A stretch of 64,000 nt of DNA. Origin: Planctomycetota bacterium (GTDB lineage: Bacteria; Planctomycetota; UBA11346). Of this stretch, positions 674-63,010 are shown piece after piece; position 1 is the first letter of the stretch; each line of letters opens with the position of its first letter. The translations under genes and the position numbers were made by a program. The notes under the pieces were generated by a model. The model saw only the letters and a list, made by a program, of their open reading frames with translations. It had not been told where the DNA came from and did not search any database. The DNA lies in the NCBI GenBank assembly GCA_028280785.1, contig JANQLF010000212.1:93444-157443 (forward strand). Reading direction: 5' to 3'.

Positions 674-684
674 GACGTGTAGCC

Positions 685-1380: not shown

Positions 1381-1381
1381 G

Positions 1382-3108: not shown

Positions 3109-3177
3109 ACTGCAAGTTTAATCAGTCAGGTGCTAAGCACTGAATAAAGCCGAGTCAAAATCGTCAATTAATTATGA

Positions 3178-3525
3178 TTATTTTAAGCGTGAGCCAATTT
3201 CTTGCATCAAGGCATTGGACTTGAGCTTATCTCCAAACAAGCCTATTTGGATGGTAATTGTCGATGCTTTAAGCGTTAACAATTCACAATGAATCGTTAC
3301 CTTCGAACCGTCAGCATAACTACCAACGACCAAAGCGGTCATTTCATCGATTTTATTTTCTTCGATAGTGATTTTCTGGACACGTAGTGTTTCCACGACT
3401 GCTTTATGAAGCTCCGGAAGTGCTGCATCAACGTGCTGACGTAGCTCACCCGACACGCCTCCGCGTGCAAAACAAGAGCCGAAGAAGAGCAGTAAAAAGA
3501 GTAAAGCAACGCTGTATTTGATCAT
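3178..3525 (-). CDS. small secreted protein or possible lipoprotein, function unknown
   Basis: 115 aa with a signal peptide MIKYSVALLFLLLFFGSCFA (possible lipobox FGSC). I recognise no catalytic motif. Confidence 0.55.
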   Translation of the reverse strand: MIKYSVALLFLLLFFGSCFARGGVSGELRQHVDAALPELHKAVVETLRVQKITIEENKIDEMTALVVGSYADGSKVTIHCELLTLKASTITIQIGLFGDKLKSNALMQEIGSRLK

Positions 3526-3613
3526 GGATGATATCTAGCCACACCAGTGCTTTGAGTCAAGAGCAACTGATGCCTACTTTACCACCCTTCACGCACAGTC
3601 ATGATACGAGAAC

Positions 3614-5527: not shown

Positions 5528-5529
5528 AA

Positions 5530-6402: not shown

Positions 6403-6487
6403 GTTACAAATTTAAAGTTTTGAGTCAAAATCACAATAGCCAAAGTAGAGAAACCTACCTATACTCTGTGTTTTACTGGAGTTATAT

Positions 6488-13196: not shown

Positions 13197-13283
13197 GCAA
13201 ATGCTCCTGAAGCCATCTATCATATCGAGTCAGATTTAGGAAAGAATGCTTCTATTTGTCGAAAACATATCTAAAAGTGTCAT

Positions 13284-29683: not shown

Positions 29684-29716
29684 TGCTGCGCACAGATTGG
29701 TGCGCAGCATTTATTT
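29684..29716. terminator. intrinsic terminator between convergent genes
   Basis: TGCTGCGCAC agattg GTGCGCAGCA followed by tttattt: a perfect 10-bp stem (29684-29693 / 29700-29709). The T-run overlaps the stop codon of the minus-strand gene. Confidence 0.75.
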
Positions 29717-34084: not shown

Positions 34085-34280
34085 GGCATTCTCCGTTTCG
34101 GTGCTGACCTCTCTCATTCAAGCCAACAGGAACGCTGCTACGGTAGAACTAACTGGGAAATTTAACAAATGAATTCATAGGTCTCTATCACCATGAATTG
34201 GAGCAGTGTCTTATGGTGGTCCCATTACTGTTACCATTTTAACAATGTAAATAGACGCTTGAGTGCTAATGCGCCAAAGC

Positions 34281-48522: not shown

Positions 48523-51102
48523 ATGACGCAATTTTCTGTTCATAATTGTCGAACACTGCCAGCTAAACATCTTGTATTGATCATATGTCTGATGTTTTCG
48601 ACGCCTGGATTCGCTGCTGACCAAGTTGTCCCGGGAGACATCCCCATCCTGATCAGGCCGGAGGCTAAACTCCTGAATCAAGAAAGCCTCCAAGCAGCGA
48701 TGCAGGAATCGGTCCAATCCGGGGTCCTGTTGATCCTAGAAGAAATGATGGCACCCGGAAATGAAACCCGCCTTGCCTACCGCGAACACGCTGCGATTAA
48801 AAAGATTGGCGAAAAAATTGTTGAGCGACGTTATCGCAAAGAAAAACGACCTATTTATGAAACGAAAAAAGTTGAACGTCTCGTGCCGAAGCGTGATGAC
48901 TATGGTGGCATCATCGGCTACGAGAAAAAATGGGTCGAAGTTCGCGCCAGCGATAAAATTGTTGGACATCGTGATATATTAGTTGGCGATGCTGAGGGCG
49001 ATATCGTTAGAAAGATTACCGTGCCAATCTTAGACCGCAGCAATAAAATGTTACCACGTGGCTGGTATGGTATGAACGCACAAGCAATTGTTTTATTAAC
49101 ACGCTGTGGTCTCGGTAATAATGGCGAAACACGCAAGATGGCTCGCGAACTCGAACGCCTGATGAATATGTTTGGTATTCCTGATAATACCTGGGATCAG
49201 TCGTGGTTAGCCATAGCCTGGATGGAATTAGCACAGTTAGATGACAACTTCGCGCCACGTCGCGATGCTATTATCGGTCGCATCATTGATGGTGCTTTAA
49301 CCAATGCTTCGAAAAAGAATCCTGGCAAAGGTATGTGGGGACCTGTCTCCATTCATCACGGTGCTAATGTAAAATTATTTTTAATTGAATTACAATTACA
49401 GACCTTATTTCAGGAAACTGAAGCAGCATTAGAAGCAGCTGATAAACGTAAAAAGAAAAAACTGCAAGAGGAATTCCGAAAGGTAACGACTGCACTCGGC
49501 GAGGTAAAACGCGCTACGCGCACAATTTCTCAACAGGGTAAACGACTCAGTGAAGTTGAGCGCCCTTGGAAAATGAATGAGACCATCAAAACCGGTGGGC
49601 ACTCCTACTATATTTATAACCGCGATATCACCGACATCGATTCAACAGCCATTGTCACCATGGTGCTCAATGAAGCTAAGAAACGTGGCTGTCTGCCTGA
49701 AATTACACCCCGTGATAAAGTACAGGGAAAAACTTTAGTTCGTGGTATAAAAAGCGAAGACGTTATTGAAGACTGTTATAATGCCTTGTTCGAATTAATT
49801 GGCGAAGGCGGTAACTTTCACACCTGCGGCAACCTCTATGCCGTCAACGCCTATGATAAAGTACCAAACCTAGCCGGTGTACCGTTAACTACTAAATTAC
49901 AGCAATTGCTCCATCCAGAAACATGGCGCTCAAATGCCGCTGGTTTTGCAGCCATTCAATTTCTCGATCCCCTCATCAGCGATCGGACCAAAGGCCGTAT
50001 TCGTGACCGTGACGAACTCGTTGCTAAAAGCCGCGCCCGTGTTCTAGAAATTATCAAAGCGTATTTAGTACGTGACCCCCATTTCAAAGAGTGGGCAGGA
50101 CCGCATAAAGATGAGACCGACTCGCTGAAGGATTTAAGCGCTAATGGTGGATGGCCGAAACAACCGAAGAAGAAAAAGAAGGCCCCCACCCCGGACATTA
50201 ATAGTTTAAGCGTCGGTTACTCTCGTACACCACGCAGCATGCTCGAAAGCCTGATGGTTCTATTCCGTCAAAAAGAAGATTCGGCAGTAAAAGACAGCAT
50301 TAATAGTCTCGCCTATCGCCTACTCATTGAGCAACAAGATGACGGTTCGTGGATGCCGCAATGTTCTATTCGTATTTCCCCTCCTGGTTTAAGTTCTGGA
50401 GAATGGGCGTTTTTAATCAGTAAATTAGCCCGACGTCATTTATGGCAAGCCGAAGATGACAAGAAAAAGAAACCGGAAGATCCATTGACTGAAGCCTTTA
50501 CACGTGAGGGACCTTACATTTTCCGCCACAGTAAAAAATTACGTAAATATCCCCACATCAATAATATTGCGTTTCGGGGTGAAGGTAACGAACCACATCG
50601 CCATGGTTACAGCAGCTCAGATTATTATTCGACCGATACGCGCATGAGCGAAACACTTGCTGCGCTCATGTATTTAAGTGCCGGTTTAGATAAGCACCCT
50701 GCAGTTGACAAAAATTTAATATTTGAATTGATTAAGCGCGGACAAGAAGCGCAAGTCGCCTATGAAACCGTCCTCCAAGAAGCACAGGACAAAGAGGTAA
50801 CTGAGGAATATACCGAAAAACAAAAAGCAAAAGATGTTAAGGCCATTGAAAAAGAAGGTCCACAAGTGGAGCCTTTAGCTAAGGGTCACCGCGCTGCACT
50901 ACACGAGGTCTGGAAGCATATTCTTATCGGCAACGGCATGGATGACCGATTGGGTGTGCTTGAACCCGAAGAGGAAGAAACAGAAGAAAAAGCTGAAGAC
51001 GCGGAGGGCGAGGACGCAGAGAAAAAAGATGGCGATAAGGAAGAGGAAAAAGAAGACAGCGTCGACAGCAAACTTGATGATATCCTTGGTGGTGAGGATT
51101 AA
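48523..51102 (+). CDS. large secreted protein of unknown function (possible alpha/alpha-toroid, prenyltransferase-like repeats) with a poly-acidic C-terminal tail
   Basis: Signal peptide ...LVLIICLMFSTPGFAA and GGGAG upstream of the ATG. Scattered W/DGSW-type segments (WDQSWLAIAWMEL, GMWGPVS, QQDDGSWMPQ). A KKKKK patch. The last 50 or so residues are almost entirely E/D/K. Confidence 0.5.
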   Translation: MTQFSVHNCRTLPAKHLVLIICLMFSTPGFAADQVVPGDIPILIRPEAKLLNQESLQAAMQESVQSGVLLILEEMMAPGNETRLAYREHAAIKKIGEKIVERRYRKEKRPIYETKKVERLVPKRDDYGGIIGYEKKWVEVRASDKIVGHRDILVGDAEGDIVRKITVPILDRSNKMLPRGWYGMNAQAIVLLTRCGLGNNGETRKMARELERLMNMFGIPDNTWDQSWLAIAWMELAQLDDNFAPRRDAIIGRIIDGALTNASKKNPGKGMWGPVSIHHGANVKLFLIELQLQTLFQETEAALEAADKRKKKKLQEEFRKVTTALGEVKRATRTISQQGKRLSEVERPWKMNETIKTGGHSYYIYNRDITDIDSTAIVTMVLNEAKKRGCLPEITPRDKVQGKTLVRGIKSEDVIEDCYNALFELIGEGGNFHTCGNLYAVNAYDKVPNLAGVPLTTKLQQLLHPETWRSNAAGFAAIQFLDPLISDRTKGRIRDRDELVAKSRARVLEIIKAYLVRDPHFKEWAGPHKDETDSLKDLSANGGWPKQPKKKKKAPTPDINSLSVGYSRTPRSMLESLMVLFRQKEDSAVKDSINSLAYRLLIEQQDDGSWMPQCSIRISPPGLSSGEWAFLISKLARRHLWQAEDDKKKKPEDPLTEAFTREGPYIFRHSKKLRKYPHINNIAFRGEGNEPHRHGYSSSDYYSTDTRMSETLAALMYLSAGLDKHPAVDKNLIFELIKRGQEAQVAYETVLQEAQDKEVTEEYTEKQKAKDVKAIEKEGPQVEPLAKGHRAALHEVWKHILIGNGMDDRLGVLEPEEEETEEKAEDAEGEDAEKKDGDKEEEKEDSVDSKLDDILGGED

Positions 51103-51973: not shown

Positions 51974-52717
51974 ATGACTATTTCGGCCAAGTTGCAGCAC
52001 ATAGGCGCATACAACAATGACAGTGGCACCGACCTACACCAACACCCCGGTTGTGAATTAGTAGTTGTCGCCAGTGGGCGTTGTCAGATATCGATTCCTG
52101 AGCGTGATTGGTCAGCCATGGGAGTAAGTGGAAGCCTATTTATTTTACCAGGACGTGAGCCACATATTCAGAAGGACTTCGGTCAATGCCGCACAGCGTA
52201 TTTAAGTTCTGCTGATATCGGATCTTTTTTTGCAACGCATGCAGACTGCATTGGACTCGGAGCAGATAGTGATCGCATCCTCGCTTGGTTTGAAGATTGT
52301 CATGCACTATTTCTTGAGAACGATCCAGCTGCGCAAAGTTTATTTCATTGTATTTGCCAACGCATTGCACGAATACGCGGCGATAATGAAAAACTCGAAT
52401 CCTACCACCCCGCCCTCAAAAATGCGATTGCCTATATTCATGCGCATCCACATCAAAATGTTGATAACAAGCAATTAGCACAGCACGTTGGTGTGAGCCC
52501 TAGTTATTTACTCGCCTTATTTCGCAAAACGTTTAATTGTGGACCACGTGCATGGCAAATACAACAACGCATACAACAAGCCAAACAATTATTAAGCGAT
52601 CCCTACCTCAGCATTGATGAAATAGCCCAGCGCTGTGGTTATGAGGATGCCCTATATTTTTCCCGCCAATTCAAAAAGAATGAAGGTCTAGCGCCATCAC
52701 AATGGCGTAAGCAGTGA
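51974..52717 (+). CDS. AraC-family transcriptional regulator (cupin-like N-domain)
   Basis: C-terminal HTH pair ...LAQHVGVSPSYLLALFRKTFNCGPRAWQIQQRIQQAKQLLSDPYLSIDEIAQRCGYEDALYFSRQFKKNEGLAPSQWR. It is divergent from the PhyH gene across an 80-nt spacer. Confidence 0.9.
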   Translation: MTISAKLQHIGAYNNDSGTDLHQHPGCELVVVASGRCQISIPERDWSAMGVSGSLFILPGREPHIQKDFGQCRTAYLSSADIGSFFATHADCIGLGADSDRILAWFEDCHALFLENDPAAQSLFHCICQRIARIRGDNEKLESYHPALKNAIAYIHAHPHQNVDNKQLAQHVGVSPSYLLALFRKTFNCGPRAWQIQQRIQQAKQLLSDPYLSIDEIAQRCGYEDALYFSRQFKKNEGLAPSQWRKQ

Positions 52718-54079
52718 TTATTTTTCGTCGGATTCTTCGATTAAGCCTAAAACACGCTTGATTTCATCAAACATCATCTGCTTGCCGGCAAGTGATGGAT
52801 ACACGTTACCAACACTCTCACCGCTAAACTCTTTTCCAAAAATAGTCACTTTATTCTTTTTATGGATTTGCTCGCATAGCGCAAATAAATCGATCACTTC
52901 GACATTATATTTATTAGCATACTTATTTACCAATTCTGATGTGTGTTTACAACGCTCATAGCGCGTTCCCTTACTCAAAGCCTTCTCACCATCCTCAACA
53001 CCCCATAAGTGAGTCATGACATAAATAGGAAAGTCTTGCTGAGCAAAAGCCTTCATCATTTCCTCAACATAATCATCAAGTCGTGAGGTATCAGTTACGG
53101 TTTTGCGCGTACCATAGCCAAACAATGGGTACACAAACGCCACCGTTGGCTTGTGATCGGTTAATGATTTCACCGCGTAGGCTTCTGGATATTCCTTATA
53201 AGCACCAAGAACACAATTAGGTCCATTGACACCAGGCCTATTAAATCCTGCAGGGGCTTCTTTTGGTCCGGCAGCCTTGAGATCTTTTGCTAAACGATTT
53301 TCCATTAAATTGCCACCAGGAAACGAGAGAATCCAGGACTCCAAAGGTGCATGAATAACAATACGCTCGTCCCATTTAATTGGACGATTAATGCCGTTAC
53401 CACCGCTCAATCCGAGAGCACGCATAAATTTCGGTCGAATGAGTTCTTTGCCGTCTTTATCCCATTTATAGCCATCTTTGGTTAATTGATTTCTGCCTTT
53501 TTTCTTCGGTGGATTTGCTTTAAGCCACTGTTCTGCTGATTCATGAATATTGACTACAGCTACTTCATTGCTCTTTGCATAGGAAACGATCATACGCGCC
53601 AAGGCGTTAACGCGCATATGCTGTGGTTTGCTTAAATCCTCGCTACAAAGCCCAGGAGTAATGAGAACCAAGCGTGCGTTTGCTGCCTTTATTTTCTCAT
53701 GCACGGCAACTATATCCGACTCTATATCCTTGAGAACATGGCGCAGCAATTCTTTTTTCTTCGGATTATACATATGATAAAGACCAAAGGATAGAACTAC
53801 GATCTGTGGTTTCTTTTTAATAACATCTTTATCAAATGACGATAATATTGACTTAAATGTTCCGGATTTCTCGCTTTTAACCGTCCATTTTATTTTACGT
53901 TTCTTAAAATTACCCTTCAGCTCTTTGCCAACATCTTTTGCTATATCAGCAAACAACCCATCGTCATAAATAAAGACATGCTCGCCATCACCGATAGCTT
54001 CAACGGCACTAACAATCGGTGTCATGAAACAGACTGCCAAACTAAGGCATCCGAGGTAAAAATAATTCATTGTATACAC
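52718..54079 (-). CDS. secreted two-domain protein, SGNH/GDSL-hydrolase-like fold (tentative); paralog of 43513..44844
   Basis: Signal peptide (...YFYLGCLSLAVCFMTPIVSA). Blocks HVFIYDDGL / IVVLSFGLYHM / LVLITPG / LTKDGYKW align with the paralog. Confidence 0.5.
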   Translation of the reverse strand: MYTMNYFYLGCLSLAVCFMTPIVSAVEAIGDGEHVFIYDDGLFADIAKDVGKELKGNFKKRKIKWTVKSEKSGTFKSILSSFDKDVIKKKPQIVVLSFGLYHMYNPKKKELLRHVLKDIESDIVAVHEKIKAANARLVLITPGLCSEDLSKPQHMRVNALARMIVSYAKSNEVAVVNIHESAEQWLKANPPKKKGRNQLTKDGYKWDKDGKELIRPKFMRALGLSGGNGINRPIKWDERIVIHAPLESWILSFPGGNLMENRLAKDLKAAGPKEAPAGFNRPGVNGPNCVLGAYKEYPEAYAVKSLTDHKPTVAFVYPLFGYGTRKTVTDTSRLDDYVEEMMKAFAQQDFPIYVMTHLWGVEDGEKALSKGTRYERCKHTSELVNKYANKYNVEVIDLFALCEQIHKKNKVTIFGKEFSGESVGNVYPSLAGKQMMFDEIKRVLGLIEESDEK

Positions 54080-54317: not shown

Positions 54318-55307
54318 ATGCCTACCACTGTTGCCATTATCGGCTGCGGAAAACGCAGCGTTATGTTTGTTGAAGCCATGTTAGCAGCCAAAGACACGAC
54401 GTTTGTCGCTGCTGTTGATCCATTTCCAGAGGGTCGCGATAAAATTGTCGAGCAATTTGGTGGCAAGGGTTTTGACAGCGTTGAAAGCATGCTTGCCGAA
54501 GTCGTTCCTGATTTTGTGTGTATGGTGACGCGACCAAACGTGCGTCTGGAACCCATCACGACTTGTGCCAAGGCTGGCGTTAAAGGCTTCCACAGTGAAA
54601 AACCAACTGGCGACGCACTTGGTGTTGCCCGTCAATCGCATGCGGTTGCGACCGAGCACGGCATGAAATTAACTTATTCCCATCAACGCCGCTTTAATGC
54701 CAACTTTACAAAAGCCAAAGAGTTAATTGATGCAGGTACAATAGGTGAAGTAAAACACATCGATACCAACTGTGATAATTTTTACGATTGGGGTACGCAC
54801 TGGTTCGACATGATGCACTATTTAAATAATGAAGAACCTGCTGAATGGATAATTGCCCAAGCCCAACGTACTGATCCAAAAATGGTCTTTGATCAACCTA
54901 TGGATCGTTGTGGCGTTGGTGTCGTCCATTTTAAAAATGGTGTCATTGGCAGCATGCACACTGGTGAAGCACAGTCACAGCACACGCGCTTTTGTGTCGA
55001 AGGCACGGAAGGGCGTATCGTCATTAATGGCTGCGATACTCCTATCGTCGATGTATGGAAAGAGTCTGGTTTCGAACGCATAGACATGACCGACGACAGT
55101 GAGAACCACCATCATCAAGTTGCACAAGCTACAATAGATGCGATTAACTGTGTGCGTGAGGATAAAGAATCACGTTGCTCGAGCCGTTTTGCACTCGCCG
55201 CAACCGAGTGTATTTTTGCCAGTTACGCTTCAGCCATACGTGGTGAGCGCATTCATTTACCATTAGAAGGTGATTTGAGTTTGGCTGACGTATTCAACAC
55301 CAAATAA
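54318..55307 (+). CDS. Gfo/Idh/MocA-family NAD(P)-dependent oxidoreductase
   Basis: N-terminal Rossmann motif TVAIIGCGKRS, then FHSEKP (the EKP motif) and a C-terminal alpha/beta dimerisation domain. Confidence 0.88.
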   Translation: MPTTVAIIGCGKRSVMFVEAMLAAKDTTFVAAVDPFPEGRDKIVEQFGGKGFDSVESMLAEVVPDFVCMVTRPNVRLEPITTCAKAGVKGFHSEKPTGDALGVARQSHAVATEHGMKLTYSHQRRFNANFTKAKELIDAGTIGEVKHIDTNCDNFYDWGTHWFDMMHYLNNEEPAEWIIAQAQRTDPKMVFDQPMDRCGVGVVHFKNGVIGSMHTGEAQSQHTRFCVEGTEGRIVINGCDTPIVDVWKESGFERIDMTDDSENHHHQVAQATIDAINCVREDKESRCSSRFALAATECIFASYASAIRGERIHLPLEGDLSLADVFNTK

Positions 55308-55398: not shown

Positions 55399-55427
55399 TG
55401 TGTACTATATTCCTCGCTGTGTACTAT
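55399..55427 (+). repeat. two copies of the 10-nt direct repeat TGTGTACTAT, 19 nt apart, just upstream of the GT2 fusion gene
   Basis: Copies lie at 55399-55408 and 55418-55427, and the ATG is at 55442. Read directly from the sequence. This is a candidate operator or promoter element. Confidence 0.5.
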
Positions 55428-55441
55428 TAAGCTTGGAAAAA

Positions 55442-58400
55442 ATGACTAAAGCAATACTCGCTGAGCAAAAATGGAGCCCCATTCAACGTGCCTTGTTTAT
55501 TGGCACCCTCTTGGGCTGTATTGCTCTCGGTATTGTTGACTTTGAATTATTCGTCTGGCTCTTCAGTCTGTTCTTACTGGTCCTGTATAGCGTCATTGTT
55601 CTGTGCAAAGTGCTGGCAGCATTATTCGGACTGATCAACCGCTTTACCATTTATATTAAAGAAGATGAATACCAGGCACTCAGTGACGATGAATTACCTA
55701 TCTATACCATTCTCTTACCGCTTTATAAAGAATCTGAAGTTGTTGAAAAACTCGTAGCGCATATTGGTTGTCTGGATTACCCCAAAGAAAAACTCGACGT
55801 CAAAGTCCTCCTTGAGCAAGACGATGAAGAAACGCTACAAGCCGTTCAACAATTTGGTTTGCCCGATTGGTGTGATTTAATAATTGTTCCTGATGAAGGA
55901 CCGAAAACCAAACCACGAGCGTGCAATGTAGGTCTAGCTCAAGCACGCGGAGAGTTCTGCGTTATTTATGATGCCGAGGATCAACCAGAACCCGATCAAC
56001 TCAAAAAAGTTATCTGCGCTTACAAGCGACTACCTGAATCAGTCGTATGCTTACAAGCCAAATTAAATTTCTTTAATGCCAAAGAAGGTTTGCTACCACG
56101 TTGCTTTGCGCTTGAATATACAACCTGGTTTGATTTATATTTGCCTGGACTACATGCCTTACATGCGCCCATTCCATTAGGCGGCACCTCTAATCATTTT
56201 AAAACTCAGGCCCTACAAGAACTCGACGGCTGGGATCCTTATAATGTTACCGAAGACTGTGACCTCGGTATTCGCATAGCAGAAGCCGGATACGCAACAC
56301 GCATTGTCGACTCAGTAACCTGGGAAGAAGCTCCATTTAAAGTTAAAGACTGGGTTGGCCAACGTTCACGGTGGATCAAAGGATATTTTCAAACGTTTTG
56401 GGTACACACTCGTCGGCCATGGTATGGATTGCGTCGTCTCGGTTTGTGGGGCTTTTTCCAAATGCTCATCACCGTTGGTGGCCAAGTCGCCACGGTATTT
56501 CTTAATCCGATTTGCTGGCTCATCTTAGCTGCCTGGTGCTATTGGCAGTGGCCTATTATTTATGTGCATTCACCTTACACCCTTGTGTTATTCGCCATTT
56601 CACTGGCCCTTTTCCAATTTAATATTTTATTCATTGGCATACATCTGATAGGTGCACTGCGACGACGCTGCTATTTTCTCATCCCCTACATACTCTTTTT
56701 GCCATTCTATTGGATCTTGGTCAGCATCGGTGCTTGGCGTGGCGTTCTCGAATTTTTCTGGTCGCCTTATAAATGGGTAAAAACATCTCACGGCCTGACT
56801 CAAATGGCCAACACCACCTTAGACATCAAACAACTCGAAACTGAAGAGCAAAACAACGCTGCTTCTGTTTATATTAAACCAGTTATGCAAGGTGGCATTA
56901 TTCATAATTTATGCATGGGCACCTCTATACTCGTTATCACTGCACTAATCACATCATCGTCGCTCATTGCCCCGGTTTATTTTGGCTATACAGATAAGGT
57001 CGAACAAGCATCGATAGCTCTTAAAGATAATTTTATCGAAGTTGAACAAAAAATTCCTTTTGCTGAATCCTCGTGGATGGATTACGATACATTAAATATC
57101 GCCTTAAACATCAAACGAGAATCTTCAAAATTAGAGGAAGCTCTAAGCGTTAAAGACCTTCGCTTGATGTTTTACCTCAAAGTACGCAACGGGGAATGGT
57201 TTCATCAAACAATTGATGCATTTGAAATACAAGACAACACCATCAACGTCCAGTTATCCTTAAATGAACATTGGAACTCATTGCTTAATGACTTTGAGTG
57301 GTCACGAGATCTCTTGCACCGTGTGCGTTCGTTTGGCGTAAAATTATTTTACAAAGAAAGTGATAGCATTACTGCCACGATCACCGCACTGACACCTGTC
57401 GCTAGTACAGCGTCTTCATCTGAAAACACCGATCTTACCATAACATCTTTGGAAGCACCGAATGCCGCATCATGTTACGGTCTTTTTGAAGCACGTTGGC
57501 TACTTAGCAAAACATATAGCAATCCATTTGACAGTGATGTTATTCAGTGCGATGCCACGTTTACACATGAACATGGTAGCTCCATAACAATCCCGGCTTT
57601 TTACACACAAGACTACTATCAGTACAAAAGCAAGGATGGCGAAGTCTTACAACCGCGCGGGCGACCTCACTGGGCAGTCCGACACGCCCCAAGCGAGGCC
57701 GGTAGGTATACTTGGCACATACACGGCAAAGATAAATTCGGCAACACTTTTCAATCAACTCAACAAACACTTGATGTTGAACATCGAGAACACCGAGGCT
57801 TTTTAACACTAGGCAAAAACAAACGATTTTTCGCTTTTGAAAACGGTGAATTTTTCTACCCAATGTCGCTGAACATCCGTTCACCACGAGATGAAGTAAA
57901 TCATGAATATTGGAGCTTTGAAATGCCTAAAAAGGCAGATGGCACCTATGTCATGTTTGAATTTTTATCCAAAATGAAAAAAACAGGCATCAATGTTGGT
58001 CGGGTATGGATGTCACCTTGGTTTGGTAGCATTGAATGGAATAAGGATGAAGATGGTTACCATGGTTTGGGTGTTTATAATTTAAAGAATGCGTATCGTT
58101 TAGATTCAATTTTTAATTTCGCACAAAAGCAAGGCATCCTCATTGAATTAGCTTTAAATCACCACGGTCCGTTTACTCAGCAATATGATTCACAGTGGGT
58201 CTATAATCCGTATAATAAGAAAAACGGCGGTCCCGCAGCGACACCACGACATGTCTTTCCCAATCAAGAGTCACGCAGCTGGTTCAAAAAACGACTGCGC
58301 TATATCGCCGCACGTTATGGTGCTTATGCCAATCTTTATTGCTACGTTTTATGGATCGAAGCAAATGTAGTGGACCCACGACCACACGTCTTAGTAGATT

Positions 58401-59242
58401 GGCATAAGGAATTTGGTCCATACATGAAAGCCATCGATGCCAACCGTCACCTCGTTAGTACTGAATTCAACAATAACGGATACCGTGATATTTGGCGCCA
58501 AAAAGAAATCGAATACACACAAGTTGCTGCCTATAATTTTGGCAAGGGCAATATACACGAAATAATGTCCATTGCGAAAACACTGCGTCCCTACGACAAA
58601 CCCGCAATTGTTGAAGAGTATATGGGTCTACCCTCCGGTGGTCATGAAGATGTATTAGCACATGATTTTCATGATGGATTTTGGGCAAATTGGATGCTGC
58701 CATTTGGCGGTGCCCCCATGCCATGGTGGTGGAATTTTATTTTTGAAAAAGGCATTGATGTTCAATACCAAGTCATCAATGCCTACATTAAAGGCGAAGA
58801 TTTGTCAGACCGCCAATGGAAACATCTTTTTGAAATGCAACTACCTAATGGAGCAGGCCTGCGCGCCTTAGGACGCTTAAGCAAGGACCAGGCCTTTTTC
58901 TGGGTCTACAAAGACACTGCTTCAAACGTTCGTTTTACCGGCGCTTGGCGCAAGCGCCGACAACTAGCTCATCAAGCTTACCGGCAACATGTGCCGCATT
59001 CATTTTCGCCTATCGATCAGATAACCGGAAAAAAAGATAGTGGCTTTATGGATATGAAAAATGTCAAATTAACAATACCCGGTGGAACTTTAGACACTGG
59101 GACCTATATGTTGGAATTTTGGGATACTTGGCAATTAAAAGAGCCCATCACGCAAGAAATTGTGATTGAGTCTTTTCCTTACAATCTTGAGCTTCCAAGA
59201 TTAACCAAAGACATTGCCATTAAGTTGAAAAAATTAAATTGA
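55442..59242 (+). CDS. membrane-embedded processive family-2 glycosyltransferase fused to a large C-terminal glycoside-hydrolase-like region
   Basis: GT2 hallmarks IYDAEDQPEPDQL, VTEDCDLG and QRSRW (nt 56360-56374), flanked by about 2 plus 4-5 TM helices. The C-terminal 750 or so aa contain a beta-sandwich (FYTQDYYQY...GRYTWHIHGKDKFGN, DUF5060-like) and a GH5/clan GH-A-like barrel (GINVGRVWMSPWFGSIEW, YVLWIEANV, PAIVEEYMG). The ATG at 55442 is preferred over the track's GTG at 55400. Confidence 0.85.
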   Translation: MTKAILAEQKWSPIQRALFIGTLLGCIALGIVDFELFVWLFSLFLLVLYSVIVLCKVLAALFGLINRFTIYIKEDEYQALSDDELPIYTILLPLYKESEVVEKLVAHIGCLDYPKEKLDVKVLLEQDDEETLQAVQQFGLPDWCDLIIVPDEGPKTKPRACNVGLAQARGEFCVIYDAEDQPEPDQLKKVICAYKRLPESVVCLQAKLNFFNAKEGLLPRCFALEYTTWFDLYLPGLHALHAPIPLGGTSNHFKTQALQELDGWDPYNVTEDCDLGIRIAEAGYATRIVDSVTWEEAPFKVKDWVGQRSRWIKGYFQTFWVHTRRPWYGLRRLGLWGFFQMLITVGGQVATVFLNPICWLILAAWCYWQWPIIYVHSPYTLVLFAISLALFQFNILFIGIHLIGALRRRCYFLIPYILFLPFYWILVSIGAWRGVLEFFWSPYKWVKTSHGLTQMANTTLDIKQLETEEQNNAASVYIKPVMQGGIIHNLCMGTSILVITALITSSSLIAPVYFGYTDKVEQASIALKDNFIEVEQKIPFAESSWMDYDTLNIALNIKRESSKLEEALSVKDLRLMFYLKVRNGEWFHQTIDAFEIQDNTINVQLSLNEHWNSLLNDFEWSRDLLHRVRSFGVKLFYKESDSITATITALTPVASTASSSENTDLTITSLEAPNAASCYGLFEARWLLSKTYSNPFDSDVIQCDATFTHEHGSSITIPAFYTQDYYQYKSKDGEVLQPRGRPHWAVRHAPSEAGRYTWHIHGKDKFGNTFQSTQQTLDVEHREHRGFLTLGKNKRFFAFENGEFFYPMSLNIRSPRDEVNHEYWSFEMPKKADGTYVMFEFLSKMKKTGINVGRVWMSPWFGSIEWNKDEDGYHGLGVYNLKNAYRLDSIFNFAQKQGILIELALNHHGPFTQQYDSQWVYNPYNKKNGGPAATPRHVFPNQESRSWFKKRLRYIAARYGAYANLYCYVLWIEANVVDPRPHVLVDWHKEFGPYMKAIDANRHLVSTEFNNNGYRDIWRQKEIEYTQVAAYNFGKGNIHEIMSIAKTLRPYDKPAIVEEYMGLPSGGHEDVLAHDFHDGFWANWMLPFGGAPMPWWWNFIFEKGIDVQYQVINAYIKGEDLSDRQWKHLFEMQLPNGAGLRALGRLSKDQAFFWVYKDTASNVRFTGAWRKRRQLAHQAYRQHVPHSFSPIDQITGKKDSGFMDMKNVKLTIPGGTLDTGTYMLEFWDTWQLKEPITQEIVIESFPYNLELPRLTKDIAIKLKKLN

Positions 59243-60463
59243 TTATTTTTGTCCTAGTAAGAAGGACAGGAATGCCTGCTGTATATCAAAACCACCCTCA
59301 TGGCCCATCCGTGGCTTGTCTAAGATCTGCTTCGGCCCCTGAAAAGCATTGTAGGCTGCATAAACCGTTGTTGGTTTACAAGTGCCATCGACAAAGCCAA
59401 TACTCATGATCATCGGCACATTGGTATGCCTAGCAAAATTGACATTATCAAAATATGGTGCTGTCCCCGCAACAGCTTCAGGGCTGCTGTCACCTTCTAA
59501 AAATAATAAATCTGGGCGTGGCCAACCCGTCACACGATCAATGACAAAACCAGTTAAATCACAGCCCGCTGGCACTCCTACCGCCATGGCAGTAACACGC
59601 TTATCTAAATAAGCACCGGCAAACGATTGTAGTGCACCTTGGCTACCGCCCATAATCCACACGTTTTCACCATCCCATAAAGGATCTTCACACATGTAGT
59701 CAAGCGCTCGGCGTACACGTAAAAACATATTACAAAAATAGGCTTGTTCTGGCGGTCCATCGAGGCCCCAACGTGGATAGCCTGCTAATTTATATTCACC
59801 GATGTCCTGATAAAAAGCTGCCTCTTTATTATTTTCCAAGCCGTGGGCATTGATATTCATACTAATACAGCCCTGTAGTGCCTGTTGAGTCGGGGTATGA
59901 AATTGTGAAGAACGGACGCCTGCTCCCTGGCAATTTAATAGTATTGGGTGTGATCCTTTTTGAGGATTGGCAGGACGTGCCAAATAACCACTGACAGGAA
60001 CGTCATCAACACAATCAATCTGTACATCCCACAATTTAACTGCGCCATCGTTGAGCAGTGTTTCTTGACCTTGGATTGGCACCTGTGCTAAACGTTTGAG
60101 CTGGCCATTCCAAAATTCATTAAAATCGCTTGGGCAATCTGTACTTGGTTGAATTTTATCGGCGTCGAATCCAACAGCCATTTTATGCGTCGCCGTTTCG
60201 CCAGTTGGAGCAGTAAATATATACTCACACTCTAAAAAACCAGGTTCCTTTAATGTACCTGAGCATCCTTCACCTTTATTGGCAATATTCACGGTGCCGC
60301 GCTTAATTTCGTCCTGGTTATCTTTTCGCAAGATCCATTCAGCTTCGCCTTCCAACATTGGCCAGCCATCACAGCTTAATACTGGGAAAAAATAAGCTTC
60401 TTCACCACAGGTAAGATGATAAGTATGGATATTGCTGAAAATTTCGATGTTATATTCGGCCAC
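59243..60463 (-). CDS. CE7-family acetyl esterase (acetyl xylan esterase/cephalosporin-C deacetylase type) with an N-terminal extra domain, leaderless
   Basis: Nucleophile elbow WIMGGSQGA. Asp region GFVDGTCKPTTVYAAYNAF. His in PRMGHEGG. GTG start. Confidence 0.85.
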   Translation of the reverse strand: MAEYNIEIFSNIHTYHLTCGEEAYFFPVLSCDGWPMLEGEAEWILRKDNQDEIKRGTVNIANKGEGCSGTLKEPGFLECEYIFTAPTGETATHKMAVGFDADKIQPSTDCPSDFNEFWNGQLKRLAQVPIQGQETLLNDGAVKLWDVQIDCVDDVPVSGYLARPANPQKGSHPILLNCQGAGVRSSQFHTPTQQALQGCISMNINAHGLENNKEAAFYQDIGEYKLAGYPRWGLDGPPEQAYFCNMFLRVRRALDYMCEDPLWDGENVWIMGGSQGALQSFAGAYLDKRVTAMAVGVPAGCDLTGFVIDRVTGWPRPDLLFLEGDSSPEAVAGTAPYFDNVNFARHTNVPMIMSIGFVDGTCKPTTVYAAYNAFQGPKQILDKPRMGHEGGFDIQQAFLSFLLGQK

Positions 60464-60485: not shown

Positions 60486-61661
60486 TTAGCTGATACTCAG
60501 ATCACCTATGTCTATATCAGCAAAGGAGGAATTAAAGTCTCCGACGTTGTTTTCACCGACTTCAGCAAATTCATCAACCTTGAATGGATCCGTTGGATCA
60601 GCTTGAATAAGGTTGTCGTAAATCTTCACCGGGCCATGCGATTCTAATACTTGAATGGCATGATGACCACGACGCTCATCAGAACAAATACGATTATCAT
60701 GAACCGTCACTTCACCACCGTGTTGGACCTCGATCGCTTTATTACAGCCACCAATAATAGTATTGCCACGTATTTCGCCACGCGTGACATCTACAGCTGG
60801 ACCACTTGGATTCCCAAATGAAATCGCCTTATCACAACCTACGAATACATTATTTTCAACGAGTAAATCTTCAGCACCGATCCAAATAAACACCGAGCCA
60901 CGCCCACCGCCATTGTGGCCACGTATGCCAACAAAGACATTATCATGTACGTGAAAGTCTTGGATGCCCATGATATCCATACCGGCGGTATAATCGCCAT
61001 TAAAACCGTCTTCTACATTTTGTTTAATCCGATCATTGATGAATAAACAATGGCGCACAATTCCATGACGAGGACGATTCCATTGAACATGTTCGTCAGC
61101 AGCAGGATTGTAGCCGAGCTCTTCTTCAGTGTAAGGCATATGATCAATACGACTGGTGCCAGTTCCTTTAAAGCCGCGCGCCCAACAATTATGAAACTTC
61201 ACATTATGCATGGTTAAATGATGGACTCGACTATCACCGATAAACATCAGTCCGTATTTTGGGCTATTAGCAAAGGTTAAATCAGCAACTGTAACATGCC
61301 GACATCGGGTTAATTTTAATATTGCTGGCGCATGCATTTTATCCGACAATAAACGCGTACCAAATTTCTTACACTGATCATGGAATTCCATTTCTGCATC
61401 AAGAATCACATCTTCACGATTGCCAGTTTCACCTCTAATCGTCACGTAGTGAGTATCTAAGATTATATCGCGCGGCATGACGTAACGACCCTTGGCAATC
61501 ACAATAGTCGAATGCTCTTCAGCATCTTCGATGGCGCGAACAATGTCCCAAGCGCTGGAGACTTTAACGACCTTACCCTCTGGTTCCGGTAATGGCTCTG
61601 GCGCTTTAACCTGAGCAATCATTTCATTAAGTCGGTCATACTGCGGATCTTTGCTTGTCAT
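60486..61661 (-). CDS. leaderless right-handed beta-helix protein (pectin-lyase fold; possible polysaccharide lyase or hydrolase), tandem paralog A
   Basis: Start at the ATG at 61661 (MTSKDPQYDRL...), 1 nt after the upstream stop. The N-terminal cap KVVKVSSAWDIVRAIEDAEEHSTIVIAKGRYVM resembles beta-helix enzyme caps (PL6/DUF1565-like). It has repeated H/N-rung motifs and is roughly two-thirds identical to the upstream gene by eye. Confidence 0.6.
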   Translation of the reverse strand: MTSKDPQYDRLNEMIAQVKAPEPLPEPEGKVVKVSSAWDIVRAIEDAEEHSTIVIAKGRYVMPRDIILDTHYVTIRGETGNREDVILDAEMEFHDQCKKFGTRLLSDKMHAPAILKLTRCRHVTVADLTFANSPKYGLMFIGDSRVHHLTMHNVKFHNCWARGFKGTGTSRIDHMPYTEEELGYNPAADEHVQWNRPRHGIVRHCLFINDRIKQNVEDGFNGDYTAGMDIMGIQDFHVHDNVFVGIRGHNGGGRGSVFIWIGAEDLLVENNVFVGCDKAISFGNPSGPAVDVTRGEIRGNTIIGGCNKAIEVQHGGEVTVHDNRICSDERRGHHAIQVLESHGPVKIYDNLIQADPTDPFKVDEFAEVGENNVGDFNSSFADIDIGDLSIS

Positions 61662-61662
61662 A

Positions 61663-62874
61663 TTATTGCTTCGCTTCTTCCTTGAGACTGAGATCGCCAA
61701 TTTCTATATCTGCAAATTGATCTTTAAAATCACCAACTTGATTTTCACCAACAGTGACGGTATCACAGCAATTAAATGGTTCGAGCGGATCTATTTGAAT
61801 AATATTATCATAAACTTTCGCTTCGTTAAACATACCAAGGACTTGAATAGCATGGTATTCCTTACGCTCAGAAGAGCAGATACGGTTACCGTAGACTTCC
61901 ATGTTATCACCGTGCTGCACTTCGATACCCTTATTACAACCACCAATAATGGTATTATTGCGAATGACACTATTTTTTATGTGAAAAGCTGAATAACCAC
62001 CTTTGGGTTCTTTGGAGCTAGCAGGACTACCATGTGGATTACCAAGTCCCATCGCCTTATCGCAGTGAATAAATACATTATTCTCTACGACCACATCTTC
62101 GGATTGGACCCAAATAAATACAGCGCCACGACCACGACCGCTCGCACCACGGATACCAACAAAAAGATTGTCGGAAATAACCCAGTCTTGCAGCGCCATC
62201 AAATCCATTGCTGCAATATAATTACCTTCATCTGGATCAACCAAATCTCGCTTGGGATGATCATTAATAAATAAACAATGCTGAACCCTTCCAAATCGAG
62301 GGCGATTCCACTCTAGATGATCATCATTTTTCGGTTCATAGCCAAGCTCTTCTGCAGAATAAAGACTGTGGTCAATTCGGTAAGGTCCTGTGCCCTTTAA
62401 TCCTCGCGCCCAAATATTGTGAAACTTAACATTATAAACGGTTAAATTATGCACGCGACCATCGCCAATCATCATAATACCATACTTGGGGCTATTGTAA
62501 AAAGTTAGATCAGCAATCATCACGTGCTTGCAACGTATTAATTTTAAAATACCAGGTGCACCAAAACGCGTACTTAAGGGTTTGAAATGTTGATCGTATT
62601 CAGCGTTACCGTCCAAGATAACATCTTCACGATTACCAGTTTCACCTCGTATGGTCACATGATTCGTATCTAAAATAAAATCACGCGGCATCACATAATG
62701 ACCTTTAGCAATTACGATAGTGGTATTTTCCTCTGCGTCTTCGACAGCACGAATAATTTCCCAAGCTGTTGAAACGCGCACTACTTTGCCAGTGGGTTCC
62801 GGCAATGGTTCAGCTGGTTTCACCTGAGCCAGCATTTCATCTAAACGGTCATATTGTGGATCTGCAGTAAACAT
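61663..62874 (-). CDS. leaderless right-handed beta-helix protein, tandem paralog B
   Basis: Start at the ATG at 62874 (MFTADPQYDRL...), preceded by GAGAGGG with a 7-nt spacer. It is collinear with paralog A, including the C-terminal FADIEIGDLSL versus FADIDIGDLSI. Confidence 0.6.
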   Translation of the reverse strand: MFTADPQYDRLDEMLAQVKPAEPLPEPTGKVVRVSTAWEIIRAVEDAEENTTIVIAKGHYVMPRDFILDTNHVTIRGETGNREDVILDGNAEYDQHFKPLSTRFGAPGILKLIRCKHVMIADLTFYNSPKYGIMMIGDGRVHNLTVYNVKFHNIWARGLKGTGPYRIDHSLYSAEELGYEPKNDDHLEWNRPRFGRVQHCLFINDHPKRDLVDPDEGNYIAAMDLMALQDWVISDNLFVGIRGASGRGRGAVFIWVQSEDVVVENNVFIHCDKAMGLGNPHGSPASSKEPKGGYSAFHIKNSVIRNNTIIGGCNKGIEVQHGDNMEVYGNRICSSERKEYHAIQVLGMFNEAKVYDNIIQIDPLEPFNCCDTVTVGENQVGDFKDQFADIEIGDLSLKEEAKQ

Positions 62875-63010
62875 GATATTGCCCTCTCGATGCTCACTGT
62901 TATAGCAATTACAAATTGTCCTACAAGCAAACACAAGGTTTTTTACAAAATACCCTTAAACACTTGGTGCACTACATTACTGTTTCGACATAAAGTGTTC
63001 TAAGTTTTAT

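Follow-up and report, generated by a model that had tools for sequence, protein, structure and literature searches.

BcsA is a membrane-embedded processive GT2 synthase with DxD, TED and QxxRW motifs, and its product is acted on in the periplasm by the hydrolase BcsZ, a member of GH8. In the clostridial CcsA/CcsZ system, CcsZ belongs to GH5. The GT2 synthase OpgH makes a polymer that the periplasmic glucanases OpgG/OpgD cut into periplasmic oligosaccharides, and AcsAB of Komagataeibacter is a BcsA-BcsB fusion, in which a synthase is joined to its periplasmic partner. Closer in architecture is tunicate CesA, a eukaryotic processive GT2 synthase sharing one polypeptide with a GH6 domain; the fusion is thought to stem from adjacent bacterial genes, and the GH6 domain has lost its catalytic Asp (PMC7464555). 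In Xanthomonas, a GT2-dependent biofilm polysaccharide is countered by a β-1,4-mannanase (PMC3528676; PMC3609779): biofilm that depends on xag is dispersed by the enzyme (PMC3528676), and XagB and the secreted mannanase ManA are encoded and regulated separately.

The gene analysed here resembles BcsA plus BcsZ in joining a processive GT2 carrying the same three motifs to a module predicted to act on the product in the periplasm. In contrast to that pair, the putative hydrolase is covalently fused and belongs to the mannanase branch of GH5; PilZ domain, BcsB and BcsC are absent, and a single transmembrane (TM) helix follows the candidate gating loop. It differs from tunicate CesA in carrying a GH5-type domain in which both catalytic Glu residues are invariant. 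The partners in AcsAB and the Opg system have BcsB and GH186 folds, and we found no sequence relationship between them and the C-terminal module. A literature search returned no publications on the fused synthase-hydrolase family.

A fusion conserved across phyla

The gene occupies positions 55442..59242 (stop codon included) on the + strand, as do all features below, and its frame runs uninterrupted through 1266 aa to the stop codon, in agreement with the sequence-only reading of a single ORF. GTG 55400 opens a longer alternative frame, but we place the start at 55442 because Met1 is nearly invariant in an alignment of 59 homologues. About 95 full-length homologues, at 30-68% identity, have an identical Pfam architecture, and among the 150 top-ranking cluster representatives for the periplasmic module, about 40 are at least 1200 aa long. 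The survey of this architecture that had been suggested thus found the fused form in Planctomycetota, Sumerlaeota, Kiritimatiellia, Victivallales and others, in independent NCBI, ENA, JGI and Logan assemblies. Conservation in so many full-length homologues excludes a chance architecture, and recurrence across several phyla and independent assemblies establishes that the fusion is real. Two-gene versions do occur elsewhere, which could favor the view that two genes were artificially joined by misassembly or a frameshift; given the continuous frame, the independent homologues and an AF2 model (pLDDT 89.3) that is confident over the synthase-hydrolase junction except for loop 451-485, we regard this explanation as negligible.

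A probable processive synthase with BcsA-like helix order

The cytoplasmic GT-A (GT2) catalytic domain (aa 85-300, 55694..56341) was delimited by Pfam (PF13632, PF13641, PF00535), invariant columns and profile matches, with Glyco_trans_2_3 at aa 174-384 (6.5e-23) and Glyco_tranf_2_3 at aa 88-314 (1e-17). D128, D177-A-E-D180 (DxD) and T270-E271-D272 (TED) are invariant in the homologue alignment, and the QxxRW motif, Q307-R-S-R-W311, lies in interface helix 2 (aa 301-323, 56342..56410; AF2 helix H301-323), with Q307, R308 and W311 kept in 59/59 homologues. The processive-synthase motifs on which a GT2 core had been proposed were located as described (IYDAEDQ 175-181, TEDCDLG 270-276, QRSRW 307-311). 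Further downstream, W445-V-K447-T448-S-H450 (WxKTxH, 56774..56791) is invariant in all 59 homologues and constitutes a candidate gating loop. Gating-loop motifs elsewhere are FxVTxK in BcsA and WGTR in hyaluronan synthase (HAS); from order and spacing, we take the WxKTxH loop to be the counterpart of that in BcsA.

The best PDB profile match of the synthase half is the mannosyltransferase PcManGT (2e-14), followed by BcsA (2e-11), and profile positions 83-402 align collinearly with BcsA 132-467, up to TM6. By Foldseek, this half is structurally closest to BcsA (2e-15); Chlorella virus HAS gives TMt values of 0.52-0.56. The best NCBIfam partial matches, CelA and PgaC, are equally weak (1e-12) and far under their cut-offs, and so do not define the donor sugar; with 46 bits against a CelA cut-off of 699, the protein is not a BcsA orthologue.

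Hydropathy and AF2 both reveal the two expected N-terminal TM helices within aa 13-65 (55478..55636; AF2 H13-32 and H34-65). TM helices 3 and 4 (AF2, aa 326-368 and 379-407; 56417..56662) are equivalent to BcsA TM5/TM6, and an RRR cluster at 407-409, just past TM helix 4, marks the cytoplasmic side. The following helix (aa 411-440, 56672..56761; AF2 H411-440) has conserved polar residues (AWRG..Q), sits between the RRR cluster and the WxKTxH loop, and corresponds by collinearity to IF3 of BcsA/HAS; it is best read as interface helix 3. The last TM helix spans aa 486-513 (56897..56980; AF2 H486-513). The earlier count of four to five TM helices after the GT2 domain was right as to their presence but too high, AF2 showing three (the two of the TM5/TM6 pair and the last).

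Overall, the helix order (IF2, TM, TM, IF3, gating loop, TM) is collinear with BcsA/HAS; in BcsA itself, an interface helix is followed by a pair of TM helices, a second interface helix and a gating-type loop. Around the last TM helix, net charge is +2.2 before versus +0.6 after, in keeping with the positive-inside rule, and K+R counts are 3.1 versus 2.1, higher before the helix in 34/59 sequences and lower in 14/59. This helix is missing from the GT2 proteins of two-gene relatives, where it is the partner hydrolase that bears a signal peptide. The helix is probably a former signal anchor with N-in/C-out orientation. Helix order, positive-inside bias and the signal peptides or lipobox on the equivalent module in eight split systems make it most likely that the hydrolase module lies outside the cytoplasm, in the periplasm, the location that the sequence-only reading had proposed with reservations.

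A soluble module related to GH5 mannanases

The soluble part (~aa 515-1266, ~750 aa) comprises a jelly-roll, DUF5060, a (β/α)8 barrel and a C-terminal sandwich, with the motifs FYTQDYY at 720-726, GINVGRVW at 849-856, LWIEANV at 970-976 and VEEYMG at 1057-1062. The β-sandwich and TIM-barrel-like part described earlier are thus present, as DUF5060 by Pfam and a GH5 barrel by sequence and fold; the jelly-roll (531-653) and the C-terminal sandwich (from 1127) had not been listed. The jelly-roll or mid domain (57032..57400) is an unassigned, CBM-like β-sandwich that AF2 predicts in isolation with pLDDT 88; it had no PDB match at E <= 1e-3, and its resemblance to jelly-roll/CBM folds is weak. DUF5060, which had been predicted, spans aa 667-780 (57440..57781; PF16586, 1.9e-10 over aa 677-761) and aligns with the N-terminal domain of ManDH5, a GH5 β-mannanase of Dictyoglomus thermophilum (PDB 9gmj, 9gpa, 9gpc-g, 9hhj, 9him).

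ManDH5 is also the closest solved relative of the barrel (aa 785-1120, 57794..58801), which has no Pfam match but which phmmer, Foldseek and the family profile assign to the mannanase branch of GH5, clan GH-A. The barrel region matches 9gmj/9gpc at E 1.4e-55 in phmmer, the predicted fold superposes with TM 0.79 and rmsd 2.5 Å, and the family profile scores 5e-110. Like our protein, ManDH5 (27-30% identity) combines DUF5060, a (β/α)8 barrel and a C-terminal sandwich, here aa 1127-1266 (58820..59239; AF2 strands from residue 1127), and profile positions 658-1234 span ManDH5 residues 21-561 of 568 in the alignment. Unlike our protein, the 568-residue ManDH5 is soluble and stand-alone, without synthase or jelly-roll mid domain. 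The 25 matches of a PDB profile search contained ManDH5 and ten distinct GH5 endo-β-1,4-mannanases, and no GH5 cellulases. The initial "GH5-type" assignment is hence borne out and sharpened to a mannanase-branch barrel with an unusual -1 subsite.

The two catalytic Glu residues are shared with ManDH5. The acid/base E973 (codon 58358-58360, checked) pairs with ManDH5 E303, the residue altered in the E303Q crystal mutant, and the nucleophile E1059 (codon 58616-58618, checked) pairs with the GEF nucleophile motif. E973, E1059, Y1031 and W1095 occur in 59/59 homologues, and Y1031, R854 and W1095/1096 vary little or not at all across 30-68% identity. In contrast to ManDH5, which retains the canonical Asn-Glu and His-x-Tyr motifs, our protein has lost both: Asn of the NE motif is replaced by Ile (I 36, G 11, N 8 and S 3 among the 59 homologues), and His of the HxY motif is missing, having changed to Ala. 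With a -1 subsite that deviates in this way from the GH5 canon, specificity may differ from that of ManDH5, or activity may be reduced.

Split relatives and genomic context

In eight other genomes (loci L008, L011, L020, L036, L039, L043, L060 and L076; Victivallales, Kiritimatiellia, Schlesneria and Acidobacteriota), a ~500-aa GT2 (43-48% identity) adjoins a separate hydrolase with DUF5060 and barrel. These pairs share with our gene the GT2 family, the DUF5060/barrel module and both catalytic Glu, but use two genes, with a classical signal peptide or lipobox on all eight hydrolases. The mid domain is found in 7/8 of the partners, and that of L060 carries a GH26 domain (4e-44) ahead of DUF5060 and barrel. 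A PA14-domain protein is encoded as well at the Victivallales-type loci L008, L020, L043 and L076, two of which (L008 and L043) further include a pilin-like gene. Together, these data support derivation of the fusion from a two-gene module of GT2 and secreted hydrolase that persists in other bacteria.

GT2-only relatives terminate within 40 aa after WxKTxH in 68/80 cases. The commonest recognisable partner of such relatives is a BcsB-like protein, found next to GT2 proteins of 42-45% identity at 11 of ~75 loci (8 upstream, 3 downstream), an indication that some members of the GT2 family, at least, make a glucan.

No neighbour was conserved across the fused family in nine contexts examined, and neither an outer-membrane export component nor a c-di-GMP receptor was seen near the gene. 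The claim that no accessory genes flank it holds only approximately: a CE7-type AXE1 esterase directly adjoins its 3′ end, and on the upstream side there is a secreted GDSL esterase. Genes for polysaccharide degradation (sulfatase, heparinase-like, rhamnosidase-like, β-helix proteins, esterases) are abundant in the window, the whole 64,000-nucleotide stretch analysed, and in related genomes. This abundance, and the similarity of stand-alone ManDH5-type enzymes to secreted degradative enzymes, would suit independent halves, with the hydrolase degrading environmental mannan for nutrition while membrane-anchored via an unrelated glycosyltransferase. We consider this very improbable: the pairing recurs, fused in several phyla and adjacent in eight genomes with differing orientations, and the mid domain accompanies both fused and synthase-linked split hydrolases while lying outside the ManDH5-matched part, which begins at query residue 65 (~aa 665).

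Proposed mechanism and product

The self-contained synthase-plus-editing reading is supported on the four points where it could have failed, the glycosidase fold, the catalytic carboxylates, the location of the module and the authenticity of the fusion. We propose, with about even confidence, that the gene encodes a complete synthase-dependent system in one polypeptide, in which a tethered retaining hydrolase cleaves the polymer that the synthase makes. This polymer is probably a β-1,4-mannan-like glycan. The cytoplasmic GT2, with its DxD, TED, QxxRW and WxKTxH elements, would polymerise sugar from a nucleotide-sugar donor, and the protein's helix bundle would thread the chain out in the manner of BcsA and hyaluronan synthase. 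The extra TM helix, equivalent to the signal peptide of the once-separate partner, would carry the domain chain into the periplasm, where the CBM-like jelly-roll, DUF5060 and retaining GH5-type barrel, tethered beside the channel exit, could bind the polymer as it emerges and cut it. For cleavage, fold and catalytic residues are in place, and the activity is deduced from them; cutting might free the chain, trim it or set an upper limit on chain length.

Retaining GH5 chemistry also permits transglycosylation, and the C-terminal module might not be mainly a hydrolase: it could transfer chains to an acceptor, for instance a glycan of the cell envelope, or may be a non-catalytic guide or anchor, as BcsB is for cellulose and as tunicate CesA's inactive GH6 domain may be. 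Replacement of both substrate-positioning -1 subsite residues of canonical GH5, the equivalent genomic position of BcsB-like partners beside GT2 relatives, and the tunicate precedent, where the GH-like domain attached to the synthase lacks its catalytic residue (PMC7464555), are consistent with such roles. However, the catalytic Glu pair, Y1031, R854 and W1095/1096, not needed for a purely structural role, are kept over 30-68% identity, and split partners also retain both Glu, so we judge this alternative unlikely.

Product identity is the weakest step. A β-1,4-mannan-like glycan is most likely by analogy, since all relatives of the hydrolase module that have been characterised are β-mannanases; the PcManGT match, the GH26 domain in the L060 partner and the mannanase-only GH5 profile matches are further leads. 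Several GT2 relatives are named XagB by JGI, a pipeline name and a lead only, as is the resemblance to Xanthomonas XagB that it implies. Alternatively, the same machine might make another polymer, a β-glucan (cellulose-like or mixed-linkage) or a HexNAc polymer, with the GH5-type domain in the BcsZ/CcsZ role and the altered -1 subsite reflecting a non-mannose substrate. Such a product, which we hold to be a possible if doubtful outcome, is suggested by the BcsB-like partners, the CelA and PgaC partial matches, the structural match to BcsA, and the Asn-to-Ile and His-to-Ala changes at GH5 -1 sugar contacts, by which ManDH5 specificity is not simply transferable. GH158, an endo-β-1,3-glucanase family, is also among the weak profile matches. 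Against it stand the eleven mannanases without a GH5 cellulase, the GH26 fusion and PcManGT, and BcsB-partnered GT2 proteins lack the hydrolase module and so may mark a different sub-family. A single gene thus probably accounts for synthesis, export and cleavage of a sugar polymer, tasks that known systems divide among separate proteins.

Conservation of the fused gene

The open reading frame extends from an ATG at position 55442 to a stop codon at 59240-59242 of the window, on the forward strand, and translates to 1266 residues. A GTG at 55400 opens a longer frame, and Met1 at 55442 is nearly invariant across homologues. The sequence-only reading had described the product as a GT2 polysaccharide synthase fused to a DUF5060/GH5-type region, and every motif it quoted was located where it had been placed. 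A search of 5.8 billion proteins recovered approximately 95 homologues of 1,210-1,340 residues, with 94-100% query coverage, 30-68% identity and the same Pfam architecture as the ORF. These derive from NCBI, ENA, JGI and Logan assemblies with the labels Planctomycetota, Sumerlaeota, Kiritimatiellae and Victivallales. When GTDB species representatives were scanned, one 'Deltaproteobacteria' MAG and one Planctomycetota MAG carried the fusion. All full-length homologues are annotated 'glycosyltransferase' or 'hypothetical protein', and database names for family members at large add only 'DUF5060 domain-containing protein'. The continuous frame and the many full-length homologues rule out an assembly or frameshift artefact, a possibility that the earlier reading had itself raised.

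The C-terminal, predicted periplasmic module is matched by 982 representatives at E ≤ 1e-30 in a library of 50%-identity representatives, which makes the family common in metagenomes. Among the best 150 of these 982, about 40 are of the fused form (at least 1,200 residues, the match beginning after residue ~500), and about 95 are proteins of 700-900 residues in which the match begins near the N-terminus. Some fused homologues of ~1480-1500 aa (P0062, P0063 and P0073) carry PF16011, a CBM9-type family, in place of a detectable DUF5060 match; the periplasmic part thus varies within the fused family.

Predicted domain architecture

An AlphaFold2 model of residues 1-1200, computed with 59 homologues as input (mean pLDDT 89.3), begins with two TM helices (aa 13-32 and 34-65), followed by a GT-A domain (aa 85-300), a helix bearing QRSRW (aa 301-323), two long helices (aa 326-368 and 379-407), a further helix (aa 411-440), a poorly ordered loop containing W445-V-K-T-S-H450 (aa 441-485) and a last hydrophobic helix (aa 486-513). 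Beyond this helix lie a beta-sandwich (aa 531-653, hereafter the mid domain), a DUF5060 sandwich (aa 667-780), a (beta/alpha)8 barrel (aa 785-1120) and a C-terminal sandwich from aa 1127. Pfam assigns three GT2 models (PF13632, PF13641 and PF00535) across aa 88-384 and DUF5060 at aa 677-761 (1.9e-10). No PilZ, MshEN, FHA or GGDEF domain was found in the ORF by Pfam, and the nearest GT2-only relatives (45-53% identity) often have N-terminal FHA or MshEN domains.

The synthase half

Residues D128, D177, E179, D180, E271, D272, Q307, R308 and W311 are invariant in all 59 aligned homologues and include the DxD (D177/D180), TED (E271/D272) and QxxRW (Q307/R308/W311) motifs of a processive-synthase GT-A domain. 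Foldseek matched the model to BcsA from E. coli and Rhodobacter with E values between 2e-15 and 5e-12. Further matches were the hyaluronan synthases of Chlorella virus and Xenopus (TM-score on target 0.44-0.56; 0.52-0.56 for CvHAS), yeast Chs1 and PcManGT, a minimal cellulose-synthase-like mannosyltransferase. The family profile is collinear with BcsA, aa 83-402 corresponding to BcsA 132-467, through both TM helices after QxxRW. In the AlphaFold2 prediction, the helices after the GT domain would form a TM channel, accompanied by amphipathic interface helices. By order and spacing, helix 411-440 probably corresponds to interface helix 3. Taken together, sequence and prediction assign this half as a GT2 of the processive type with its own helix bundle.

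The cytoplasmic gating loop of processive synthases has a conserved motif of the type aromatic-x-x-Thr-x-basic, which reads FxVTxK in BcsA and WGTR in HAS. In the fused family, W445, K447, T448 and H450 are invariant in 59 of 59 sequences at the position expected for this loop, past residue 402, where the profile alignment to BcsA ends. By order and spacing, we presume WxKTxH to be a candidate gating-loop motif.

The ORF is not a BcsA orthologue: it scores 46 bits against the CelA equivalog TIGR03030 (cut-off 699), has no PilZ domain and lacks a BcsB gene in its neighborhood in the window. The NCBIfam matches, to CelA, PgaC/IcaA and further GT2 equivalogs, were all partial and weak, and none came near its cut-off.

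The hydrolase half

The GT2 and DUF5060 models anticipated by the sequence-only reading were both found, but the barrel had no Pfam family match even at an E of 10, Cellulase (PF00150) included, and was therefore tested by other means. Faint PF00150 matches do occur in some homologues. A phmmer search of PDB sequences returned 9gmj and 9gpc at E 1.4e-55. The Foldseek description line, our sole source for the identity of 9gmj, gives both as ManDH5, 'a beta-D-mannanase of GH5 family from Dictyoglomus thermophilum', and lists E303Q complexes with mannotetraose among the ManDH5 entries. The ORF model fits ManDH5 with a TM-score of 0.79 and an rmsd of 2.5 Å over ~520 columns, and the succession of a DUF5060 sandwich and a (beta/alpha)8 barrel is common to both. 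These matches bear out a glycosidase fold for the region in which a TIM-barrel-like part had been noticed. When the 9gmj sequence was rebuilt from the alignment and searched, it retrieved relatives that were unnamed or called 'DUF5060', the nearest in Dictyoglomaceae; stand-alone relatives often show faint PF00150 or PF26410 matches.

The sole difference between 9gmj and 9gpc is a Glu-to-Gln exchange in FWN(E/Q)VD, at the residue aligned with E973 of LWIEANV. E973 thereby aligns with the acid/base E303 of ManDH5 on strand 4, and E1059 of VEEYMG aligns with the Glu of a VGEF motif, the usual position of the strand-7 nucleophile. Both putative catalytic Glu are retained in 59 of 59 homologues, as are W744, W856, E865, Y879, W919, Y954, R958, Y1031, W1081, W1095 and W1096.

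Searched against the PDB, the whole-family profile matched ManDH5 at 5e-110, ten GH5 endo-beta-1,4-mannanases (3ziz, 1rh9, 1qno, 4qp0, 3wh9, 31ao, 9m20, 3wfl, 3pz9 and 6tn6) at E 1.6e-10 to 1.4e-5, and GH158 entries. These matches comprise eleven mannanases, ManDH5 included, and no cellulase, which places the module in the mannanase branch of GH5 with its catalytic residues kept; the corresponding activity is predicted from relatedness.

Canonical GH5 substrate contacts are partly kept, namely the strand-2 Arg (Arg854, 57 of 59), the strand-6 Tyr (Tyr1031) and the strand-8 Trp (Trp1095). A fully canonical GH5 assignment fails at two other positions. The Asn that normally precedes the acid/base Glu is replaced by Ile972 (window 58355-58357), where the 59 homologues have I (36), G (11), N (8), S (3) or V (1) and the split-form Victivallales proteins have Ser. 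On strand 6, Ala1029 (window 58526-58528), at a position that varies across the family, stands in for the His of His-x-Tyr. Stand-alone ManDH5-type proteins, and the hydrolase encoded beside a GT2 gene in an Acidobacteriota MAG (locus L060), keep both the Asn of the NE motif and the His of His-x-Tyr. Together with the invariant Glu pair, the Ile972 and Ala1029 replacements suggest a changed -1 subsite.

Split forms and membrane topology

Separate HMMs for the GT2, the mid domain and the hydrolase were run against the fetched loci. In eight genomes, a GT2 of ~500-585 residues adjoins a separate DUF5060-barrel gene, with the mid domain ahead of the DUF5060-barrel module in seven of the eight. 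The hydrolase gene lies downstream on the same strand in L008, L011, L039 and L043, is divergent in L020, L060 and L076, and is convergent in L036. Sequence and prediction thus show the synthase-hydrolase linkage to be conserved, either as a fusion or as neighbors.

The split partners open with a classical signal peptide, that of L076 being MIKLLFFLFFPLFVFSAGA/EE; the L039 partner has a lipobox instead (..VFAIGC). The split GT2 proteins terminate directly after WxKTxH, and this motif lies within 40 residues of the C-terminus in 68 of 80 GT2 relatives. In the ORF, the last TM helix thus takes the place of the partner's signal peptide. Across the fused family, net charge around this helix is +2.2 before versus +0.6 after, with 34 sequences higher before and 14 lower. 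Partner signal peptides, charge bias and collinearity with BcsA and HAS together argue strongly, if indirectly, that residues ~515-1266 are extracytoplasmic, in agreement with the periplasmic C-terminal domain of the sequence-only reading. One polypeptide would accordingly hold an inner-membrane synthase and a polymer-cleaving enzyme on its periplasmic side, the latter a GH5-type barrel that retains the two catalytic Glu and is predicted to face outward.

Modelled alone, the mid domain is a confident jelly-roll (AlphaFold2, pLDDT 88). It has no significant structural match in the PDB, the nearest being CIA30/CBM-like modules, galectin and cellulosomal CBMs at E > 2e-3; calling it a CBM would be a guess from fold class. 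The ManDH5 match begins at query residue 65 (~aa 665), leaving the mid domain outside the matched part, and the domain is common to fused and split synthase-linked hydrolases. For these two reasons it is the best candidate for a synthase-docking module, or for one that keeps hold of the nascent chain.

Several split loci have distinctive contents. In L060, the secreted partner (3003-5777, minus strand) adjoins the GT2 gene (5803-7347, plus strand) and consists of a signal peptide, GH26 (Pfam 4.3e-44), DUF5060 and a GH5-like barrel, with canonical WNE and RHGY motifs; two mannanase-family domains thus stand beside one synthase. The Victivallales-type loci L008 (5839-14092), L020, L043 (1595-8894) and L076 encode a conserved PA14-domain protein of ~600-970 aa (24-32% mutual identity) adjoining the signal-peptide hydrolase. 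A pilin-like N_methyl gene separates GT2 and hydrolase in L008 and L043, with DUF1559 in L008 only. No homologue of the PA14 protein or the pilin-like gene was found in the window.

Genomic neighborhood

Upstream of the ORF, on the same strand and across a 134-bp gap, lies a GFO/IDH/MocA oxidoreductase gene (54318-55307); further upstream are genes for a secreted GDSL esterase (52718-54079, minus strand) and an AraC regulator (51974-52717, plus strand). Directly adjoining the ORF at its 3′ end, with no gap, is a convergent gene (59243-60463, minus strand) whose product is an AXE1-type (CE7-like) esterase lacking a signal peptide. Beyond it, two right-handed beta-helix (NosD/pectate-lyase-like) proteins of ~400-420 aa are encoded on the minus strand by genes that overlap by 38 bp (60486-61700 and 61663-62934), and another beta-helix protein is encoded at 41215-43401. 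A promoter/terminator scan found nothing above shuffled sequence near the gene start, and the 64-kb window contains no tRNA gene or Rfam family at gathering score.

Some of these neighbors recur elsewhere. GDSL and GFO/IDH/MocA genes are again nearby in L001, around a homologue of 65% identity, and in L089 (32% identity) GFO/IDH/MocA is nearby and AraC directly upstream; these recurrences are weak, as all three families abound in genomes of this kind. In the Planctomycetota MAG locus L006, an AXE1 homologue (338-1627, plus strand; 35% identity) lies directly upstream of a fused gene (31% identity), a recurrence that possibly reflects a link to acetylated substrates, or else chance. No conserved partner, porin/TPR outer-membrane exporter or c-di-GMP protein was found beside the fused gene in eight other contexts, and no porin/TPR export gene adjoins the ORF in the window.

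The wider gene content, with a sulfatase, an FGE-kinase fusion, heparinase-like, beta-helix and PA14/CBM proteins, fits a PVC-type polysaccharide degrader. Multidomain proteins in the window include a 637-aa protein with a Ser/Thr protein kinase domain and an FGE-sulfatase (sulfatase-modifying-factor-like) domain (3614-5527, plus strand) and, on the minus strand, a 1468-aa protein joining a glucose/sorbosone dehydrogenase beta-propeller to He_PIG, PA14, CBM96 and PKD domains (29711-34117), a 495-aa fatty-acid desaturase with a C-terminal Rieske [2Fe-2S] domain (11736-13223) and a 626-aa protein in which an EF-hand motif precedes an AhpC/TSA (peroxiredoxin-like) domain (45644-47524). Several large ORFs in the window have no Pfam match, among them 18136-20283, 27031-29676 and 48523-51102.

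Polymer identity and proposed mechanism

Given this overall model, we put a mannan-type product at about an even chance. The hydrolase relatives matched in the PDB are mannanases, the L060 partner carries GH26, which is mainly a mannanase family, and PcManGT, which depends on GDP-Man, is the best PDB match to the nucleotide-binding half of the GT2. Several GT2 relatives are also labelled 'XagB' by JGI, although these are pipeline names only; the relatives reached via a gammaproteobacterial GT2 relative, some so labelled, were exclusively MAG proteins. The Xanthomonas xag cluster directs production of an uncharacterised biofilm polysaccharide, and the extracellular beta-1,4-mannanase ManA disperses the biofilm (PMC3528676; PMC3609779). 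Against these points, or neutral to them, are the altered -1 subsite of the hydrolase, the equally weak NCBIfam matches to CelA and PgaC, and BcsB-like proteins flanking GT2-only relatives in 11 of ~75 loci.

These BcsB-flanked relatives (Mucilaginibacter/Chitinophaga and Firmicutes), found among others in Mucilaginibacter, Lachnospiraceae, Oscillospiraceae and Desulforamulus, share 42-45% identity with the GT2 half of the ORF. The BcsB-like gene is upstream in L032, L045, L049, L058, L074 and L078, and downstream in L042, L044 and L056. Extracytoplasmic partners of the GT2 family are therefore of two types or more, BcsB-like and DUF5060-GH5. Surveying the neighbors of GT2-only relatives in the ~75 loci revealed no dominant partner, and most neighbors had no Pfam match. 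A conserved ~520-aa protein without a Pfam match is encoded directly downstream of the GT2 gene in L032 (7368-8933), with homologues in L045, L049, L058, L074 and L078 (Bacteroidota), and is probably a further unrecognised component of the Bacteroidota GT2 system.

In the mechanism that we propose, the polymer would emerge beside the tethered hydrolase module, which would bind it, and the GH5-type barrel would cut the chain by a retaining mechanism, leading to release, trimming or sizing. An extended version, which we consider improbable, is that the family is a self-sufficient bacterial beta-mannan synthase whose tethered hydrolase would serve as a molecular ruler, the jelly-roll and DUF5060 setting its distance from the channel exit. 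The nascent chain would be cut into fixed-length oligomers that PVC-type bacteria would retain in their periplasm or envelope and that would function like osmoregulated periplasmic glucans. The gene has no outer-membrane exporter beside it.

Discussion

The ORF follows the logic of BcsA/BcsZ and similar pairs, in which a synthase is accompanied by a polymer-cleaving hydrolase. Fusion of a synthase to a periplasmic partner has a bacterial precedent in AcsAB. A eukaryotic precedent for joining GT2 to a hydrolase family is tunicate CesA, which combines GT2 and GH6 in one protein, with the catalytic Asp lost (PMC7464555). Our literature searches, of incomplete coverage, found no description of the fused family or of the solved relative ManDH5, and nothing relevant on a bacterial mannan synthase. 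The fused and split forms side by side document how a signal peptide can turn into a connecting TM helix when a synthase ending in the cytoplasm is fused with a secreted partner.

There is continuing debate over why synthase-dependent systems need a hydrolase or lyase (BcsZ, AlgL, PslG, PelA). Since a single gene here carries both predicted activities and the two catalytic Glu are identified, the part played by cleavage in yield, chain length and release becomes directly testable, and E973Q and E1059Q point mutants, or truncation after residue 515, offer a handle on the role of the hydrolase within a single gene. We know of no description of a bacterial beta-mannan synthase in a synthase-dependent pathway, for which this family is a candidate. 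If the product is mannan, the family would supply such a synthase and a one-gene route to these polymers.
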